Assembly (NCBI GenBank): GCA_035352955.1
Contig: DAOPYQ010000002.1
Coordinates: 140,518 to 204,517, forward strand
Source: Candidatus Omnitrophota bacterium
Lineage (GTDB): Bacteria; Omnitrophota; Omnitrophia; Omnitrophales; Aquincolibacteriaceae
Reading direction: 5' to 3'
DNA length: 64,000 nt
The translations under genes were made by a program, and so were the position numbers. The notes beneath the pieces were generated by a model. The model was not told where the DNA came from, made no database searches, and worked only from the letters and a program-made list of their open reading frames with translations. Of the stretch, positions 42,641-50,872 are shown piece after piece (within the stretch, counting starts at the first letter, position 1; the number at the start of each line of letters is the position of its first letter).

Positions 42641-43465
42641 TTATCCAGCTTTAAGAAATGCATCCACGGCTTTAACGAACGCTTCACGCTCTTCGATGTG
42701 AATGTTATGAGCCGCGCCCGGGACGGGCTGAAAAATGCCTCCGGGGAGCTCCCGGGCAAGCGCTTCGGCTTCTTCGGGGAGGATCAGAACATCTTCCGCT
42801 CCTTCCAAAACAAGCGTTCTGGCCTTGACCCTGTTCAGGCGGTCACGCGTGTCAAAGGCGGAGATGGCATCGATCTGCCCCTTGAATCCGGGGAGCTGCT
42901 GTTTGTAGCGGTTCCGAAGTCCCTTTTTGATGAGAGCCGCGATAAAAGTTTCGCGGGCAAGCGAACTCTTGGCAAAAAGCCAGGGTGTCCATTCGCGGAG
43001 CCAGGCTTCCGGATCGGTCCCCTCCTGCAATTCCCTGTAGAATTTCAGAAAAAGCTCATTGTTCCGTGCGGAGGAAACGGCAGCCGTGCTCGCCAGCACA
43101 AGCCGGTCGAGACGTTCGGGATAGCGGATCGCGAATTCCTGCGCGACGTACCCGCCCAGCGAATGCCCCAGGATATGCGCCTTGGGGACCTTCAAATGAT
43201 CGAGAAGCCGCAGGACATCCTCGGCCATGGCCGCCACCGTGTACGGCTTCTCGGGGATCTTGCTCCGGCCCGCGCCGCGGTTATCGATCGTGATCGTCTG
43301 ATAATGTTTCGGAAGCCTCGCGATCACCCCGCTCCAGCTCGCGCCGTCGGCCCCGAGGCCTGCGATCAGAACCAGCGGCGTCCCCTCCCCGCACACCTCA
43401 TAATAAAGAGGCACCTCGCCCGCAAGCATCGCCCCATGACTTTGTCGCCTATCGTGTATGATCAT
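42641..43465 (-). CDS. Alpha/beta-fold hydrolase
   Basis: GHSLGGYVA nucleophile elbow and LVLIAGLGADGASW. Confidence 0.65.
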   Translation of the reverse strand: MIIHDRRQSHGAMLAGEVPLYYEVCGEGTPLVLIAGLGADGASWSGVIARLPKHYQTITIDNRGAGRSKIPEKPYTVAAMAEDVLRLLDHLKVPKAHILGHSLGGYVAQEFAIRYPERLDRLVLASTAAVSSARNNELFLKFYRELQEGTDPEAWLREWTPWLFAKSSLARETFIAALIKKGLRNRYKQQLPGFKGQIDAISAFDTRDRLNRVKARTLVLEGAEDVLILPEEAEALARELPGGIFQPVPGAAHNIHIEEREAFVKAVDAFLKAG

Positions 43466-43534: not shown

Positions 43535-44272
43535 TCAACGGCCGCGCGATTTCAGCCCGCCAAAGATCGACAACTCAAAGATCTTGAAAAAACAATCCAC
43601 CTGGCGGAATCCGATCTTGCGGAGCCACCGGCATTGCGCTTCCACCGGCGCGAGGATATTCGTGTCCAGAAGCTGGTTGTGATAAAAATCCCGGCTGACC
43701 TTCTCCCGGGTGAAGGAGCGGTCCAGGCGCCGAAGCCGCGCGTAAAGAGCATCGATGAAGTATTCGCTGAAGATCTTCTGGATCTCCGGGGTCGCGGACT
43801 GCACGTGCTCCAGGTTCAGAAAAAGCCCTCCCGGCGCGAGCAGATCATAGATCTGCCGATAGATCTCCTTTTTCTTCCGGTCGGTCTGATGATGGATCGA
43901 AAGCCCGGAAACGATCAGATCGAACCGGCCGTGACCGGCCACCGACCGCGGCCAGGCGGATTTTCCGTAGTCCCCTTGAATGAAGGAAAGGTGCTTGTGG
44001 TTCCGGGGCGCCTTCTTCCGCGCGGCCTCGATCATCGTCTTGGAAAAATCGAGGAACACCCCCTTCGCCCGCGGGTATTCGTCCAGGACCGCCCAGCCCA
44101 AATGCCCGTCGCCGCAACCCAGGTCGAGAAAGCTCGTCACTTTCTTACGCATTTTACGGATTAAAGTAAGAAGCACTTCCGTCTGGACTTTCGCGAGGGG
44201 GATCGCCGCGCGAACGATCTTCAAATACCGCTTCCCCAGTTTCTCATCTTTCCACAGATCCACTTTTTTCAT
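43535..44272 (-). CDS. Class I SAM-dependent methyltransferase
   Basis: LDLGCGDGHLG motif I, and LAPGGLFL. Confidence 0.65.
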   Translation of the reverse strand: MKKVDLWKDEKLGKRYLKIVRAAIPLAKVQTEVLLTLIRKMRKKVTSFLDLGCGDGHLGWAVLDEYPRAKGVFLDFSKTMIEAARKKAPRNHKHLSFIQGDYGKSAWPRSVAGHGRFDLIVSGLSIHHQTDRKKKEIYRQIYDLLAPGGLFLNLEHVQSATPEIQKIFSEYFIDALYARLRRLDRSFTREKVSRDFYHNQLLDTNILAPVEAQCRWLRKIGFRQVDCFFKIFELSIFGGLKSRGR

Positions 44273-44363: not shown

Positions 44364-44585
44364 TTATTTGACCCGAAGGTGAAGACGAAGATCCAGAACA
44401 TGGCTCAGCCGGAGAAGGAGGTCGAGTGAAAGATTCTGAAGCCCCCGCTCAATTCTGGAAATATTGGCCTGCCGCGTACCTAACTCCCGGGCCAAACCCT
44501 GCTGCGTCAGCCCCTGCCTGAGCCTCGCCTTCGCCACAGCCCTTCCGATCTCTCTCTGTAATGCTACAAGCGACGTCTTTGCCAT
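44364..44585 (-). CDS. XRE-family helix-turn-helix transcriptional regulator
   Basis: LRQGLTQQGLARELGTRQANISRIERG HTH_3 motif; 73 aa. Confidence 0.7.
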   Translation of the reverse strand: MAKTSLVALQREIGRAVAKARLRQGLTQQGLARELGTRQANISRIERGLQNLSLDLLLRLSHVLDLRLHLRVK

Positions 44586-44619
44586 AGCTAACAGCCTCCG
44601 GGACTTCCCCCTTTTGCCG

Positions 44620-45085
44620 GAACTCTTCGCCCCACACTAACTCTACGACCGACACTAACTTTACGGCCGACACGAACCCTTCAACCGAAGCGAACTCTTC
44701 GACCCACACTAACTCTCCGTCCTACACAACTCTCCGGCCTACGCAACTCTCCGACCAGCGCTAATTCTCCGCCTACACGAACTCTGCAGCCGGCACGAAC
44801 CCTTCAACCGAAGCGAACTCTTCGACCAGAACTAACTTTCCGACCCACACTAACTCTCCGTCCCACACGACTCTCCGGCCTACGCAACTCTCCGACCAGC
44901 GCTAATTCTCCGCCTACACGAACTCTGCCGCCGGCACGAACACCTCAACCGAAGCGAACTCTCCGGCCAGAACTGACTTTCCGGCCCACACTAACTCGTC
45001 CGTCAACACCAGTTCTCCAGCCAACTCAAATTCTCCGTCTTACACAACTTTCTGTCCCACACGGTTCTCCGCACCACACCCCCAC
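44620..45085. repeat. Array of ~26 tandem degenerate 17-18-bp repeats (consensus ~YACACNAACTCTYCGRCC) with a higher-order ~123-141-bp periodicity (~3.5 copies)
   Basis: Read directly. The landmark cacgaac(c/a)c(c/t)tcaaccgaagcgaactc recurs at 44671, 44794 and 44935. One frame is open across the array but has no start codon. Confidence 0.85.
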
Positions 45086-45092
45086 GGCTATT

Positions 45093-45122
45093 TTGCCGTA
45101 TATCATATATGATATACGGCAA
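45093..45122. promoter_or_regulatory. 30-bp perfect palindrome TTGCCGTATATCATATATGATATACGGCAA (candidate operator for a dimeric HTH regulator, or hairpin)
   Basis: Checked base by base: the reverse complement equals the sequence itself. Lies between the repeat array and the 3' end of the minus-strand island genes, ~500 bp upstream of the XRE gene start. Confidence 0.8.
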
Positions 45123-45252
45123 GAAACCCATGGAATTGAACTCGGTCGGCTTATGAGTGTCCGGGCTACAGACTTCGAACGGACTGAGACCTGGCGGTGT
45201 CGTAGAAAGAACGTTGGCCTCCCTGCCGGGGGCCAAACGGAGGTCCGCGGTC

Positions 45253-45441
45253 CTATTTTGCGGCGGATTTGAACATCCAGAGCGCGAGGAGGAACGCCAC
45301 CGCCGCTCCCACAAAACTCAATTCCACGGGAATCGCGGTTTGCCCCACCGTTACCGGCGTTTTCAACAAATACCTCACGGCATGCGCCAGCGCCACCGCG
45401 AGAAAGATGACTCCCGAAACCATCAACGGCCTTTTCTGCAT
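45253..45441 (-). CDS. Small two-helix membrane protein (hypothetical)
   Basis: MQKRPLMVSGVIFLAVALAHAVRYLL…VGAAVAFLLALWMF; RBS GGGG upstream of ATG 45441. Confidence 0.35.
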   Translation of the reverse strand: MQKRPLMVSGVIFLAVALAHAVRYLLKTPVTVGQTAIPVELSFVGAAVAFLLALWMFKSAAK

Positions 45442-45556
45442 GTTTCCCCTCCCGCTGTTAACCTCTCGATGTCGTGTACGGCACACCTTGAGAAGTGACG
45501 GCATCACATTTGATTAACCGAATCAAATGCCTCCCGGACGACGTTCGATCCACAAG

Positions 45557-47635
45557 CTACTTTTTTTTACCACTAGGTGTCGCTCCGAGTCGGAAGTACA
45601 ACCGCTCATAAGTGTCGAGCAACTTATCCATCATTTTGTCAGCAGCATCCACTCTTTCAGGGCTTCGCAATTTAGAAAGCAGGTCGATCAACGCCTTTGC
45701 TGGCAACTTGATCACTACGGTTCTTTCATGCTCGTGATATATTTCACGAACCCAATCCAATTCCTTACCTTTTTCCAAATTCACGCTCTCAGCTCGATTA
45801 ACAATAAAACCAAGGCGTCCATACTCTCCCGTCAAGTAAGATAACATTTGCCTATATTCTTGAGGCCCCAGATCAGCTGAGAAATTTTTAATCTCAAATA
45901 TTACTTGGCGAACGCCATAGTCATGGAGAATCCGCTGCCACGCATCTGTTTTCCCGTTATTTCGCGCAACAACATCCCTACGTTGCGTCGCGTTTTTATT
46001 AGGATGCAGCTCGGCGCTCACTAGCCCCCCAGCAAATACAATTTTTAATACTGTCAAACACCACTCCTCAAACTCTGTTGCGCCGGTGTCGCCATGAGGA
46101 ATTTTTGCCAGCTCCGCCATTAGTTGGCCCAATTTCTTTTTTCTGATTTCGGGGGTTTCAGACGACACTTCGATATCGTACTCATCGTGGATTTCATCAA
46201 CTTCCGCCGCTGGCAGTTTTTCCTCTTCGAGATTCAACGCGATCCAATAGCATGGATGCACAAGCAATTCCGTCTCTCTAACAACCAAAAAATCAGGATC
46301 TTTCCCATCGTGACAAAAAACAAAACTCGAGGCATCGTTCTTCCACACCCCTAAAAAACCAACGCTAAAAAGACACTTAACAATTTCTTCTGGCCTCTGA
46401 AATATTTTTAAGGTTTGAATTTCAACAGGCTTGAGGCTCTCATTGTTTATAATGTCATAAAGCAATTTTTCTATACTTCCAAAGGTGTTTTTTGCGCTGG
46501 CACCCGCAAACGCGTGTACGCAAAGACTCAAGCCTGGCACTATCCCTTCATATTCTTTCTTCAGGTCATCAAGACGCGAACAAGAAATTTCTCTAGCAGA
46601 CACATCAATATCATCTTCGTAGATTTCATTTCGTTTGTTCGACAGAGCATGGTTAAAAGCTCTATTCATTAAAACGATCAGATCTCTCGGCCGATATAGC
46701 GTCTGACGTAAGCATCGTCTGAAGCCCGTCATGCCACTCAATTCGCGAAAAGCTATTGCATTCCACACTTTAATGCTTTTATCATTCTCGATATTAAAAA
46801 CTTTTTGTATTCGGCTGCAAATCATATCGAGCAAATGTTGCTCATCCCAATGCAATCTCAAAACATCACCTTCGATATTTCGGGAATAATCAGGATCCTG
46901 CAACTGAATTGCTCTAAAAATATTGTCGCGTAGAAATGCGGTCGCTGTCGTCCTGGGCAAACTCGTACTAAGCTGGTCCAGGGCATAAAGCAGCCCTGTC
47001 AAAATAGCAACCCCCAACGAATCCGGCTCATACCCATCGTCTAATCTGTCAGCTAGAATTTTTACGGAGTAGTGTGCGCCATCAAGCACATTTGCTGCCA
47101 TTTTTTGGAGAGAGGTAATACCCAACGACGTTGTTAACGCGGCTATTCTCCGTTCAACAGGAACGGAGGTATCTACTTTTTCTTCTAAGGCCGAATATAG
47201 CCGTGCCGTTAGACTTTCCCCGCGGCGAGACCAACCTTGCGCCAAGATACGGATATCTGCTTTCTGCTCAGAATTTAATTTGTAATTATTCATACAAGCT
47301 ACAAGAATTTCATTCAGAACAGCATATTGCCACGCAATGTTACATGCCGCGCGCAAATAATTTTGTTTTTCTCCAAACAAAGAAACGAGACTGCGTAAAC
47401 CTATAACGTCTGCTTCTCCAGGGGTTAGATCAATTACTGTAGTCTTGACCGCATCATGCAAATAGCTCTTTAGCTTATAGTGAAGAGCACTCTTCCCCGT
47501 TCCTCTCCGGCCAACGACAATACGCCTTTTACTTTCTTCAATCAGCGATCTGTATTCGGAGGTTTCATAGAAAGCATGGTCTAGCATGTATTGATCTAAT
47601 TCTGCCCGTAAGTCACCCAATGGATTAGTTTTCAT
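45557..47635 (-). CDS. P-loop NTPase fused to a C-terminal Mrr-like PD-(D/E)xK restriction-endonuclease domain (candidate defence/toxin protein) in a low-GC island
   Basis: Walker A VGRRGTGKSAL and Walker B ILADRLDDGY. C-terminus FEEWCLTVLKIVFAGG…RRDVVARN…VIFEIKNFS fits Mrr_cat (E…D…(E)xK). Gene GC ~43% versus ~58% for the surrounding genes. Confidence 0.6.
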   Translation of the reverse strand: MKTNPLGDLRAELDQYMLDHAFYETSEYRSLIEESKRRIVVGRRGTGKSALHYKLKSYLHDAVKTTVIDLTPGEADVIGLRSLVSLFGEKQNYLRAACNIAWQYAVLNEILVACMNNYKLNSEQKADIRILAQGWSRRGESLTARLYSALEEKVDTSVPVERRIAALTTSLGITSLQKMAANVLDGAHYSVKILADRLDDGYEPDSLGVAILTGLLYALDQLSTSLPRTTATAFLRDNIFRAIQLQDPDYSRNIEGDVLRLHWDEQHLLDMICSRIQKVFNIENDKSIKVWNAIAFRELSGMTGFRRCLRQTLYRPRDLIVLMNRAFNHALSNKRNEIYEDDIDVSAREISCSRLDDLKKEYEGIVPGLSLCVHAFAGASAKNTFGSIEKLLYDIINNESLKPVEIQTLKIFQRPEEIVKCLFSVGFLGVWKNDASSFVFCHDGKDPDFLVVRETELLVHPCYWIALNLEEEKLPAAEVDEIHDEYDIEVSSETPEIRKKKLGQLMAELAKIPHGDTGATEFEEWCLTVLKIVFAGGLVSAELHPNKNATQRRDVVARNNGKTDAWQRILHDYGVRQVIFEIKNFSADLGPQEYRQMLSYLTGEYGRLGFIVNRAESVNLEKGKELDWVREIYHEHERTVVIKLPAKALIDLLSKLRSPERVDAADKMMDKLLDTYERLYFRLGATPSGKKK

Positions 47636-47844
47636 GTCAATCCTTCCTTTTTAAAATCACCGCACAATACAAGTAATAGCCCCTTCGAACGAATAATTAC
47701 TCGCTAACGCGAACCACTGAATTCCGGGGGCACATTACTTAATGCTATTCCCTCACCCGAACTGCGAGACCTTTTCGCAAGAGTTCGTTATTGAGATAAT
47801 CACCTCGCCAAGCTGAGATTCTTCGCTTTGCTCAGAATGACGAA

Positions 47845-47880
47845 AACAAAAAAGGCGGTTTCCCTTTTGAGGAAACCGCC
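47845..47880 (-). terminator. Rho-independent terminator-like hairpin (minus-strand orientation) inside the island's non-coding remnant
   Basis: ggcggtttcc-cttttga-ggaaaccgcc perfect 10-bp stem, preceded on the plus strand by aacaaaaaa (U-run on the minus strand). Confidence 0.5.
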
Positions 47881-48293
47881 TCAGACAATGCAAAAAGACG
47901 AGAATCCCACCGCCCCAAGCTGATAGCCTGGAGCGTACCCGGCTCTCGCGCTGTTCGCTCGTGTCCGGTTACGGGCACTCGATCAAAAAAAACACTGCGT
48001 GAATTCTCTGCTCCTACATCCCAAGTTTCAAGGAAAATTAGCGATTTTTTTCGGAAAATTCTTTTACTCGCTTCCCCGAACGGGAAAAGTTTCAAGGGAT
48101 ATTACGGCCGCAGTCCACGGACTGCAGACTGAAGACCGGAGACGGAAAATCTGTGTTCTCGGATCTGACAGACTCTTTCCTAAAATGTTCCTCGAACACG
48201 CCGATCAATTTCGTTCAATTTATAGCATTCATGGAATTCTTTTTAAATCATATTTTATTTGATTAATCGTGAATCTCATGATATCCTTTCCTT

Positions 48294-48842
48294 ATGAGAA
48301 ACAAATCGGAACTCATAAAGCTTGAGAAAGTCACCCGAAGAATCTTCCTTATCCGTGGCCAGCGCGTAATCATGGACTCCGACCTGGCCGGGGTCTACGG
48401 CGTTAAGACCAAATCTCTGAACTTGGCCGTCAAACGTAACGGCGCGAAATTCCCCGCCGATTTCATGTTCCAGTTGACCCGCAAGGAGGACGAAACTTTG
48501 AGGTTTCAAATTGAAACCTCAAAAAAGACACGGGGCGGCAGACGTTACCTGCCCTACGCCTTCACCGAACACGGGGCCATCATGGCAGCGAATGTCCTGA
48601 ACAGCCCCCACGCGATACAAATGAGCGTTTTTGTGGTGAGAGCTTTTATCAAAATGCGGTCTTTGTTATCGGACAACAAAAAACTCGCCGAAGAACTGAG
48701 GGCGCTGGAAAAGAAGCTGACCGGACGGCTGAATGTTCATGAAATCGCGATCGTGGATGTTTTGCGAAAGCTCATGAAATTACTCGAGCCCCCACCCGAA
48801 GTCCCCATTCCCGAGAAGCCGCCCATTGGGTTCCAACCGTAG
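48294..48842 (+). CDS. ORF6N-domain protein (phage/mobile-element associated KilA-N-like DNA-binding protein)
   Basis: IRGQRVIMDSDLAGVYGVKTKSLNLAVKRNGAKFPADFMFQLT…GGRRYLPYAFTEHGAIMAANVL is collinear with ORF6N family proteins. Confidence 0.7.
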   Translation: MRNKSELIKLEKVTRRIFLIRGQRVIMDSDLAGVYGVKTKSLNLAVKRNGAKFPADFMFQLTRKEDETLRFQIETSKKTRGGRRYLPYAFTEHGAIMAANVLNSPHAIQMSVFVVRAFIKMRSLLSDNKKLAEELRALEKKLTGRLNVHEIAIVDVLRKLMKLLEPPPEVPIPEKPPIGFQP

Positions 48843-48876
48843 ACCTACCCCGCAGGGACGATAAAAAGCATCGAGG

Positions 48877-50049
48877 TCAGCTCTGTACTTTGACGGCTAG
48901 TCCCTTTTGCAAAAGTTCGTTGTTGAGGTAGAGCTGTTTGCCGTCCTTTGAGGTTACCCAGACGTCGGCTAAGTACCTGTCATATTTGTCGGACTTGGTG
49001 GTTTTAATCAATATTGCGGGACACGGGCCACGGTCCACGGAACACGCCAGGACCTGCTCGACAAAGGCTTTGGCTTCCTTCCCTTCCTTGCTGATCAGTT
49101 CCGGGCAGTCAATAGCGCGAAGGCGCAGGGTCTGGACACTGCGGACGCCAAAGCCGAGGTCGACCACGGCTTCCAGCGTGTCTCCGTCGAGCACCCTTTT
49201 CACCCAGGCGCGGTAAGTGTAAAGGTCCCCTTCCGTGCGTTTGGAAAGACGGATCAAATCCGCGGGCGCGGAGCCTCCTCCCGCGAACGGAGGCGTGGAT
49301 TCGATCAGAGCGCCTTCTTTGAAACGGAGATCCTTGGAGGTCTTGTAATAATTGGAAAACCCAAGATCAATCACCACCTTACCGGTCTCGGGACCCGACA
49401 GGGCTTTGACGACGCGGTACGTCCCGGGCTTCCCGGGTTCGGCTTTGAGCGAGGGAGAAGATTCCACCGGCTCTGCGGCGGCGCGGGCTTCGGCCTTCGC
49501 CTTCCCGACCTTGACCTTCTTCACTTCCTCGCGGGTTTGGTCGCGGTTCCATTTCTCTTTCACCGCTTTTGCGGCAAGGGTTTCCCTTTCTTTGGGATCG
49601 TTGACCGCAAGAAGGGCCTGGTACTGGCTCCAGCTCAATTCATCGGCCGGCCGATGAATTGGGTACGTCCGCGCGAATTGGAGCATGTAGCGTAGTTCGG
49701 TCTCACTCTGGCCAAGGTCCGCGGCAAGACGCTTCATAACCTGTTGGCCGTAGTCCGCGCGCTCTTTGTGCTGGAGGACATGCGTGTCAATGAGCTTGCC
49801 GATCTCCCACGCTTCGCGGACCTTCTCCTGGTCGACGGCCTTCTCGACACGGGCCACGCTCTGCGCCCGGGCGTCTCTCACGGCCGTCAGGAGTTCCTCA
49901 TAAGTCGTCACGGACGCCGCGGCGGGCGCAGCGCCCGGGCCGGCGACTTCTTTGGGAGTTTCTTTTTTCCCGGGGGTTTCGGCAAAGACAAGCGCGGGTG
50001 AAACAAGAAGCAACGCGAGGGATAAAGCGGAGAGAGCTGTCCTTTTCAT
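48877..50049 (-). CDS. Secreted nuclease: signal peptide + DUF1016_N (YhcG N-terminal-like) domain + C-terminal staphylococcal-nuclease (SNase/thermonuclease) domain
   Basis: Start MKRTALSALSLALLLVSPALVFA (RBS AGGAAAGG). REAWEIGKLI…ADYGQQVMKRLAADLG…LSWSQYQALL resembles DUF1016_N. C-terminal VLDGDTLEAV…RLRAIDCPE…DKYDRYLADV matches SNase catalytic motifs. Confidence 0.65.
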   Translation of the reverse strand: MKRTALSALSLALLLVSPALVFAETPGKKETPKEVAGPGAAPAAASVTTYEELLTAVRDARAQSVARVEKAVDQEKVREAWEIGKLIDTHVLQHKERADYGQQVMKRLAADLGQSETELRYMLQFARTYPIHRPADELSWSQYQALLAVNDPKERETLAAKAVKEKWNRDQTREEVKKVKVGKAKAEARAAAEPVESSPSLKAEPGKPGTYRVVKALSGPETGKVVIDLGFSNYYKTSKDLRFKEGALIESTPPFAGGGSAPADLIRLSKRTEGDLYTYRAWVKRVLDGDTLEAVVDLGFGVRSVQTLRLRAIDCPELISKEGKEAKAFVEQVLACSVDRGPCPAILIKTTKSDKYDRYLADVWVTSKDGKQLYLNNELLQKGLAVKVQS

Positions 50050-50232
50050 GGAGAACCTTTCCTTAATGAGAGACCGGCTTCCAAAGAATGAGAAACCGAG
50101 GTGAGAATATTCTTCCCCGCCCCGCCTTGCAACACTTTTTATGGGGCTTCCCCCCGGGGCAGAAAATGCGGCCAAAACTTGCAATATGTGTGCGCACATA
50201 TTATACTTGTATTAGAAAATAAGGAGGACCCT

Positions 50233-50457
50233 ATGCCGAACATGACACTCTCGATCCCTGCCGACCTGAAGGCAAAAATGGACCGTTTCAGGGAGATCAA
50301 CTGGTCCGAGGTCGCGAGACAGGCGATCTTTCAAAAGACCCTTGTCATGGACCGAATGAATCAGCTGATGTCCTCCAGTAAGATCAGTGAGCCGGAAACC
50401 GTCTACGAAGCCCGCAAGATCAGCCGCAAGGTCGCGAAAAAACACAAAGCATCCTGA
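50233..50457 (+). CDS. Putative antitoxin (small RHH/VapB-like protein)
   Basis: 74-aa ORF with strong RBS AAGGAGG. Its stop overlaps the downstream PIN gene start (TGATATGG). Confidence 0.45.
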   Translation: MPNMTLSIPADLKAKMDRFREINWSEVARQAIFQKTLVMDRMNQLMSSSKISEPETVYEARKISRKVAKKHKAS

Positions 50458-50458
50458 T

Positions 50459-50872
50459 ATGGAGCTGGTGGTCGACGCCAACATTCTTCTGGCGGGCTTC
50501 ATGAAAACCGCCGTGACGCGGGAACTTCTTCTGGACTCCCGGCTAAAGCTGCACGCGCCGGAATATTTGGTCTATGAAACCCGAAAACACCTTCTCGGAA
50601 ATTCCGACCTGAAACGCCGCATCGGTCTTTCCGCCAGTGAGATCGATAAGATATGGTTCCTTCTTACCCAGAATATCGAATCCCACGCACAGGGAGACTA
50701 CCAAAAAGCCCACGCAACGGCACTCAAACTTGCGCCCCATGCCGAGGATGCTCCTTACCTCGCATTGGCGCTGAGCATGAACATACCCGTGTGGTCGAAT
50801 GACAAGGCGATGGCCATGCAGCCCAGGATCCGAATCCTGACGACACGCGACATTCTTGTCATGCTCCGTTAG
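50459..50872 (+). CDS. PIN-domain toxin (VapC-like)
   Basis: MELVVDANILLAGFM… N-terminal PIN acidic-residue pattern; 137 aa; tightly coupled to the preceding small ORF. Confidence 0.55.
   Translation: MELVVDANILLAGFMKTAVTRELLLDSRLKLHAPEYLVYETRKHLLGNSDLKRRIGLSASEIDKIWFLLTQNIESHAQGDYQKAHATALKLAPHAEDAPYLALALSMNIPVWSNDKAMAMQPRIRILTTRDILVMLR

Follow-up and report, generated by a model that had tools for sequence, protein, structure and literature searches.

The controller (C) proteins of restriction-modification systems, among them C.BclI, C.AhdI, C.PvuII, and C.Esp1396I (PMC2175313, PMC3351150), are small XRE-type helix-turn-helix (HTH) proteins of ~70-80 aa under autogenous control through a dyad operator, the C-box, upstream of their own gene. 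CapH, which is found with CapP, is an XRE-type repressor that acts on immune operons, CBASS among them, and has a palindromic promoter site (bioRxiv 10.1101/2022.04.27.489752). HipB and HigA are small HTH_3 proteins that autoregulate via palindromes overlapping the promoter, and the phage Cro/CI proteins and SinR, which belong to the same fold family, bind as dimers to a dyad and occlude the -10 region. The locus described here bears some likeness to each of these. It lies in a 64-kb stretch of an Omnitrophota genome (the window, by which we mean the whole stretch of DNA that was analyzed), whose sequence is identical to that of a metagenome-assembled genome (MAG) contig in GCA_964411105.1 (L001), and it combines a gene for a 73-aa XRE protein with a 30-bp perfect palindrome on the upstream side of that gene. 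From comparison of related loci, we consider it probable that the palindrome is a cis-regulatory operator of the adjacent small XRE protein, that it overlaps a promoter, and that it is autoregulatory. All genes near the palindrome are on the minus strand, and the features referred to below are as follows.

42641 to 43465, minus strand: alpha/beta hydrolase gene, downstream of the XRE gene.
43535 to 44272, minus strand: gene for a SAM-dependent methyltransferase of the BioC/UbiE class, downstream of the XRE gene.
44364 to 44585, minus strand: XRE-family HTH gene, 73 aa, the presumed palindrome binder (Pfam HTH_3 match).
44586 to 44611, minus strand: native leader, with a Shine-Dalgarno-like GGAGG before the XRE ATG (CCTCC at 44595-44599 on the plus strand).
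44612 to 44619, minus strand: proximal copy of CGGCAAAA, corresponding to the end of the right arm of the palindrome plus flank (read in the sequence).
44620 to 45090, minus strand: tandem array of ~26-28 units of 18 bp, some of 17 bp (manual segmentation; TRF gives 44621-45004).
45091 to 45098: distal copy of CGGCAAAA, the two copies bracketing the array.
45093 to 45122, no strand: perfect palindrome (sequence, shuffle control, and conservation of its core upstream of XRE homologues).
45100 to 45115, within the palindrome: 16-bp core ATATCATATATGATAT.
45082 to 45133, no strand: imperfect outward extension of the dyad, with 26-nt arms that are 85% complementary.
45253 to 45441, minus strand: 62-aa membrane open reading frame (ORF), on the upstream side.
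45557 to 47635, minus strand: gene for a Sll1717-family P-loop ATPase, 692 aa (NCBIfam NF047389, 240 bits, cut-off 75).

The HTH is the sole domain of the 73-aa protein (HTH_3, PF01381: E 4.9e-13, 49.3 bits, cut-off 23). By PDB sequence match, its closest relatives of solved structure are C.BclI (E 4.8e-6), HipB (2e-4 to 6e-4), SinR, and C.AhdI, and that these are dimeric HTH proteins acting on palindromes upstream of their own genes is in favor of the operator reading. The closest PADLOC models are Control_protein (4.4e-7) and capH (9.8e-7); TIGR03070 matched at 2.7e-11, yet this is under the cut-off of that model.

Each of the described systems nevertheless differs from the Omnitrophota arrangement. 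Restriction-modification C proteins are encoded beside an endonuclease and a DNA methyltransferase, whereas neither is adjacent here, the methyltransferase of the locus being of the BioC/UbiE class. The C-box consists of paired dyads with GACT/AGTC, whereas here there is one long dyad of 26-30 bp of the ATATC...GATAT type, and, unlike in C-box systems, further copies of the site precede unrelated neighboring genes. The likeness to CapH lies in the XRE HTH, the defense-island context, and the palindromic site as well as in the PADLOC match; however, no CapP-type metallopeptidase is present in any of the locus gene tables, the S26 peptidase at one locus (L019) being of the signal-peptidase family, and the XRE gene follows the variable gene on the same strand instead of diverging from it. 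In contrast to HipB and HigA, the XRE gene has no conserved toxin partner, since the flanks differ from locus to locus and no HipA or RelE-type toxin was called. Finally, in contrast to phage Cro/CI, the site has no phage context. A 22-mer core of the palindrome gave 0 matches in viral contigs, and no inverted repeat was found upstream of three distant viral XRE homologues (34-56% identity); a viral origin was rejected on these two grounds.

The palindrome itself, TTGCCGTATATCATATATGATATACGGCAA, was read off the window as its own reverse complement, with 15-nt arms, and is the longest perfect palindrome of the 64 kb, which confirms the original prediction of a perfect 30-bp palindrome. That prediction had also held a chance origin to be very unlikely, and this was borne out: in 200 first-order Markov shuffles of the whole window the longest arm did not exceed 12 nt and was usually 7-9 nt, so that chance is ruled out, and the analytic expectation for a palindrome with 15-nt arms is ~64000 x 4^-15, or roughly 6e-5. 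Its placement had likewise been described correctly, with the repeat array on one side and lower-GC genes on the other (GC falls to 0.43-0.48 at 46-49 kb of the window), and the distance to the XRE gene, given as about 500 bp, is 507 bp from the near edge of the palindrome to the ATG at 44585. Of the further half-site copies for which a search had been proposed, none was found elsewhere in the window (a 14-mer scan allowing ≤3 mismatches returned four matches, two of them the palindrome itself and two with 3 mismatches, versus 2.1 expected), and copies are present in other loci. The site is a single dyad with ATATC/GATAT half-sites, an AT-rich stem, and the flanks GAAACCC (plus strand) and AATAGCC (minus strand); the consensus of the palindrome is GCCGTATATCATATATGATATACGGC, and ATCATATATGAT was found in none of the papers searched. 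A second exceptional perfect palindrome, CAATTCATCGGCCGGCCGATGAATTG, occurs at 49636-49661 (13-nt arms versus the shuffle maximum of 12). It lies inside the DUF1016_N+SNase coding sequence (48877-50199, minus strand), and the residues it encodes are not conserved in the homologue at another locus (L007).

On the downstream side of the XRE gene, the methyltransferase and the hydrolase are possibly co-regulated with it, and the XRE-methyltransferase pair is syntenic in four other loci (L012, L013, L014, and L023). On the upstream side, 45253 to 47635 is a variable position that is occupied by unrelated genes in other loci. The C terminus of the Sll1717 ATPase found there in the window resembles the PADLOC candidate PDC-M36A, and to the right of it are ORF6N, DUF1016_N+SNase, and PIN_2 genes. 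The ATPase gene together with the ORF6N (PADLOC PDC-S05), DUF1016_N+SNase (PDC-S02), and PIN_2 genes forms a lower-GC, defense-island-like block at 45557-50872, within which a 660-bp stretch (47636-48293) holds no called genes. A tRNA search of the 64-kb window found none, and Rfam searches at E up to 1 across 43-49 kb returned nothing except an unrelated weak raiA-hairpin match at 48.9 kb.

Comparison across genomes provides strong evidence for the operator reading. Thirty-nine XRE homologues with 63-100% identity, named Candidatus Omnitrophota, were collected, and contigs were traced via protein look-ups. Of the 13 independent loci with a homologue, 12 have the core ATATCATATATGATAT on the upstream side of the XRE gene, the locus homologues having 63-84% identity in Omnitrophota and ~45% in an Uhrbacteria MAG. 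Besides the window, the loci with the core (≤2 mismatches) before the XRE gene are L004/L025, L006, L012/13, L015, L016, L017, L018, L019, L020, L021/22, L023, and L024; the chance expectation of such core matches is ~0.04 per 150 kb, and the loci totaled 136 kb. Spacing is nearly constant. The distance from the center of the core to the XRE start codon is 20-38 nt in 11 other loci (once 60), or more exactly 20.5-37.5 nt with the exception of 60.5 nt in L015, and is 30.5 nt in L004, where the homologue has 71 aa. With L004/L025 and L006 set aside, the range in the remaining loci is 27.5-37.5 nt, again apart from L015. The gene upstream of the site, on the other hand, differs in each lineage (TIR, KAP NTPase, Abi_2, Fic, NiSOD, S26 signal peptidase, Sll1717 ATPase, or unknowns), which indicates that the site belongs to the XRE gene and not to the neighbor. 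In the aligned XRE loci, conserved columns extend from -13 to +15 relative to the dyad center and are followed by a purine-rich Shine-Dalgarno region, with no conservation further upstream of column -13 and no conserved -35. The sole variable position of the core is +/-3, where both arms have changed symmetrically in L021/22, giving ATATCtTATAaGATAT. Throughout the Omnitrophota XRE family the recognition helix, TRQANISRIERG, does not vary, in keeping with the invariant core of the site; the constancy of the helix makes its comparison with core variants uninformative. Taken together, the association of the core with XRE homologues in 12 of 13 loci, its near-fixed spacing, and the extra copies described below support the original prediction of an operator for a dimeric HTH protein.

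Several observations stand against this reading. First, in L014 (1-270) the same XRE protein is encoded as in L012 (1970-2100), but ~100 bp including the palindrome are missing. The deletion is flanked by AACGG direct repeats and amounts to a natural operator-deletion variant; since the XRE gene is kept after loss of the palindrome, the site is dispensable, at least in the short term. Second, an exact scan for the 22-mer core, with one genome per species, yielded five loci (two Omnitrophota MAGs and one MAG each of Parcubacteria, Uhrbacteria, and Clostridia), and in three of these five (L005, L007, and L008) the 6.5-8 kb examined per locus contains no XRE homologue. In the Uhrbacteria MAG (L006, 249-1818), the 22-mer palindrome ends 10 nt before a 512-aa ORF that starts with an XRE HTH; this HTH is in frame with MurA, which may reflect a fusion or an assembly or frameshift artifact. 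In the Clostridia MAG (L008, 1432-1465) the core is part of a perfect 34-bp palindrome, and a gene for a GntR/FadR-type regulator begins 20 bp downstream of it. In the Parcubacteria MAG (L005, 5081-5110) it is part of a 30-bp palindrome that separates two convergent genes and has a T-run after it. The palindromes of L005 and L008 may be convergent or unrelated uses.

A working model for the operator can be proposed. A dimer of the 73-aa protein would bind the half-sites GCCGTATATC and GATATACGGC, separated by a 6-bp AT spacer, at a site that would overlap the promoter from which the regulator itself is transcribed. The motif TAnGAT, at +1 to +6 directly to the right of the dyad center, would serve as the -10 element, with the conserved A-run at +13 to +15, just past the palindrome, as the transcription start. 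The third base of the sigma-70 -10 hexamer is the least constrained, and the variable +/-3 position would be that base of a TAnGAT -10 element. A scan for consensus sigma-70 promoters called none at the site, however, and this, like the lack of a conserved -35, tells against the model. Because a bound dimer would occlude the promoter, we propose negative autoregulation, and the same XRE protein would control those other island genes that carry the site. From these sequence patterns we infer that the XRE protein binds there, that the site overlaps the promoter, and which sign the regulation has.

Control of the XRE gene by the site is less certain in the window than in the relatives, because the tandem array intervenes and the center of the palindrome is 522 nt from the XRE ATG. 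The array takes the place of a short leader, which measures ~7-25 nt in the relatives (~47 nt in L015). In the nearest relatives with XRE-methyltransferase synteny, L012 (84% identity) and L023 (77%), the leader is 20 and 18 nt, respectively, and follows CGGCAAAA directly. The native leader of the window aligns with the purine-rich leaders of homologous loci, and the two copies of CGGCAAAA on either side of the array point to its origin by duplication or insertion exactly where operator and leader meet. In this genome, an 18-bp minisatellite has expanded in the space that separates the putative operator from the Shine-Dalgarno sequence; should the site still serve as the promoter, the leader of the XRE mRNA would be ~510 nt long and made of repeats. 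The minus-strand consensus of the array is GGyCGGAGAGTTmGTGTn, and most units hold an SD-like GGAG or GAAG followed by GTG. A higher-order repeat of 141 bp is present 2.3 times with 91% identity. Neither the 12 other XRE loci nor viral contigs contain the array, no long ORF runs through it, and the z score of its predicted RNA fold (-1.9) comes mostly from the palindrome; a coding repeat, a structured RNA, and a repeat shared with other sequences were rejected as identities for it on these grounds. Short-read assemblies break inside the array (L002 and L003, at position 1) or exactly at the palindrome (L023, 1-26), so that these elements break up metagenome assemblies and will be under-represented in contig collections.

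Such an arrangement raises the alternative that the palindrome is a relic, an XRE operator by descent that was uncoupled from its gene by expansion of the array, so that the XRE gene now depends on read-through or a different promoter and the palindrome no longer has a function. The array and the 522-nt distance, both confined to this lineage, would fit this alternative, as would the XRE gene that exists without a palindrome in L014 and the absence of any match at the palindrome in a scan for consensus sigma-70 promoters. However, the copy in the window is perfect over its 15-nt arms and better than most XRE-proximal copies, which is not the appearance of decay and argues against long disuse, although the 91% identity of the higher-order repeat means that the expansion may be too recent for decay to show. 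Furthermore, the promoter scan turned up no alternative within the array or past it. On balance, we regard a relic as unlikely.

Additional copies of the site are pertinent to how far its regulatory reach may extend. In other genomes, every copy either adjoins an XRE gene or falls within the same island, the settings of L005 and L008 aside. Two or three copies occur within 1.4 kb in L004/L025, L016, and L018, with three core copies in L004. One copy lies 64 nt upstream of a 142-aa gene in L018. In L007, a locus without an XRE gene, another precedes an unrelated gene of 163 aa by 36 nt; others are found just after the XRE gene in L016 and past that gene's intrinsic terminator in L025. Copies in front of other island genes are what one would expect if the regulator had a small local regulon. 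In L004 (6546-6700, equivalent to L025 8964-9120), ~55-60 nt homologous to the XRE 5' end come after the first palindrome, beyond which the sequence is unrelated and leads into a TIR gene; this region is a truncated duplicate of the operator and the XRE 5' end. The island holding the palindrome and the XRE gene adjoins ligA in four Omnitrophota lineages (L004, L007, L016, and L018). Its gene contents differ each time (TIR, KAP NTPase, ORF6N, or unknowns), it ends at a DUF1016+SNase gene in L007 and L016, and it looks like a variable hotspot. A more far-reaching scheme, which we offer as speculation with a distinctly low chance of being right, is that the palindrome, the short leader, and the XRE 5' end make up a portable promoter/operator "socket" in Omnitrophota variable islands, into which defense-type genes (TIR, KAP NTPase, Abi_2, Fic, and Sll1717 ATPase) are swapped, the palindromes also acting as structure-prone recombination boundaries and the minisatellite tuning or switching XRE dosage and island expression.

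Alternatively, the palindrome could act as a nucleic acid hairpin, either as an RNA stem-loop in the 5' leader (a stabilizer, a processing site, or a translational element) or as a single-stranded DNA or cruciform structure. As single-stranded DNA it is predicted to form a stable hairpin (-13.4 kcal/mol, z = -5.1), and the copy between convergent genes in L005, with its T-run, is terminator-like. The outer arms also covary. Positions 9-14 differ between copies yet are complementary in 89 of 114 cells, versus 65 in shuffles (0 of 5000 shuffles reach this value), a count that carries some ascertainment bias, five of the loci having been found by the exact 22-mer. Among XRE-proximal copies alone, complementarity is found in 50 of 72 cells versus 44 in shuffles, and 132 of 5000 shuffles reach it, while two copies found without the 22-mer bias (the third palindrome of L004 and the second of L018) are perfect palindromes with 14-15-nt arms and different outer sequences. 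Such complementarity is not predicted by a pure protein-contact model. It could possibly stem from a hairpin or cruciform function or from quasi-palindrome correction; quasi-palindromes tend to mutate to perfect ones through template switching. Against a hairpin, the 16-bp core is invariant in sequence, and not just in pairing, across proteins that are 63-100% identical, whereas a pure stem would drift via compensatory change, and the site is strictly tied to one HTH family. In addition, if TAnGAT is the -10 element, the transcript would begin after the palindrome, and the site in the window has no U-run and no Rfam match. We therefore find a hairpin role very unlikely as the explanation of the site. 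An intrinsic terminator was considered separately and rejected, with no terminator-like site at 45093-45122, where the stem is AT-rich and no T-run follows.

Very unlikely, too, is a dif/pdif- or attC-like recombination or cassette-boundary site at which defense-type genes are exchanged beside a conserved XRE "anchor". The original prediction had named a recombination site as its alternative, and the support for one is circumstantial: the 28-bp conserved part does parse as 11 + 6 + 11 (TGCCGTATATC-ATATAT-GATATACGGCA), two copies 285-337 bp apart bracket the XRE gene in L004, L016, and L018, the adjoining genes are hypervariable and defense-like, L004 has a palindrome and a truncated XRE 5' end before its TIR gene, and the L014 deletion took out the site, but any dyad of such length parses in the same way, no recombinase is present in the window flanks (~19 kb to the right and ~10 kb to the left of the palindrome) or in any locus gene table, the sign of the GC skew is unchanged at the site, copies are several per locus and not one per chromosome, the L004 break falls inside the XRE coding region and not at the palindrome, and the L014 deletion lies between short direct repeats. 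Several more specific identities were rejected as well. A chromosomal dif/Xer site does not fit a skew that is negative on both sides or the 2-3 copies within 1.4 kb at some loci, and an integron attC site does not fit the lack of a tyrosine recombinase in the window flanks or copies that are near-perfect dyads with a fixed core. An att site at a tRNA was dismissed for want of a tRNA in the window, and a REP or MITE dispersed repeat was dismissed on the single copy in the 64-kb window and on copies elsewhere that lie by XRE genes or in the same island. The palindrome has some resemblance to the AT-centered tel sites of telomere resolution; a protelomerase site was nevertheless rejected, with no such gene called in the loci examined and the site tied to the XRE gene.

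In sum, as judged from sequence comparison, the pairing of the operator with the XRE gene would be ordinary self-regulation through a known kind of operator, here in an Omnitrophota family and in a variable, defense-like island. The sole oddity is the 0.5-kb minisatellite lying between operator and gene in this genome, which would matter only if it modulates expression. The operator would also mark a recurrent variable, defense-like island, located next to ligA in four loci. Omnitrophota is a phylum known mostly through metagenome-assembled genomes, and the operator pattern ATATCNTATANGATAT should be usable for finding regulons in such assemblies, within what is otherwise a standard autoregulatory design. 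Collectively, the palindrome consensus and the 73-aa XRE protein would give the Omnitrophota a concrete, testable regulator-operator pair.
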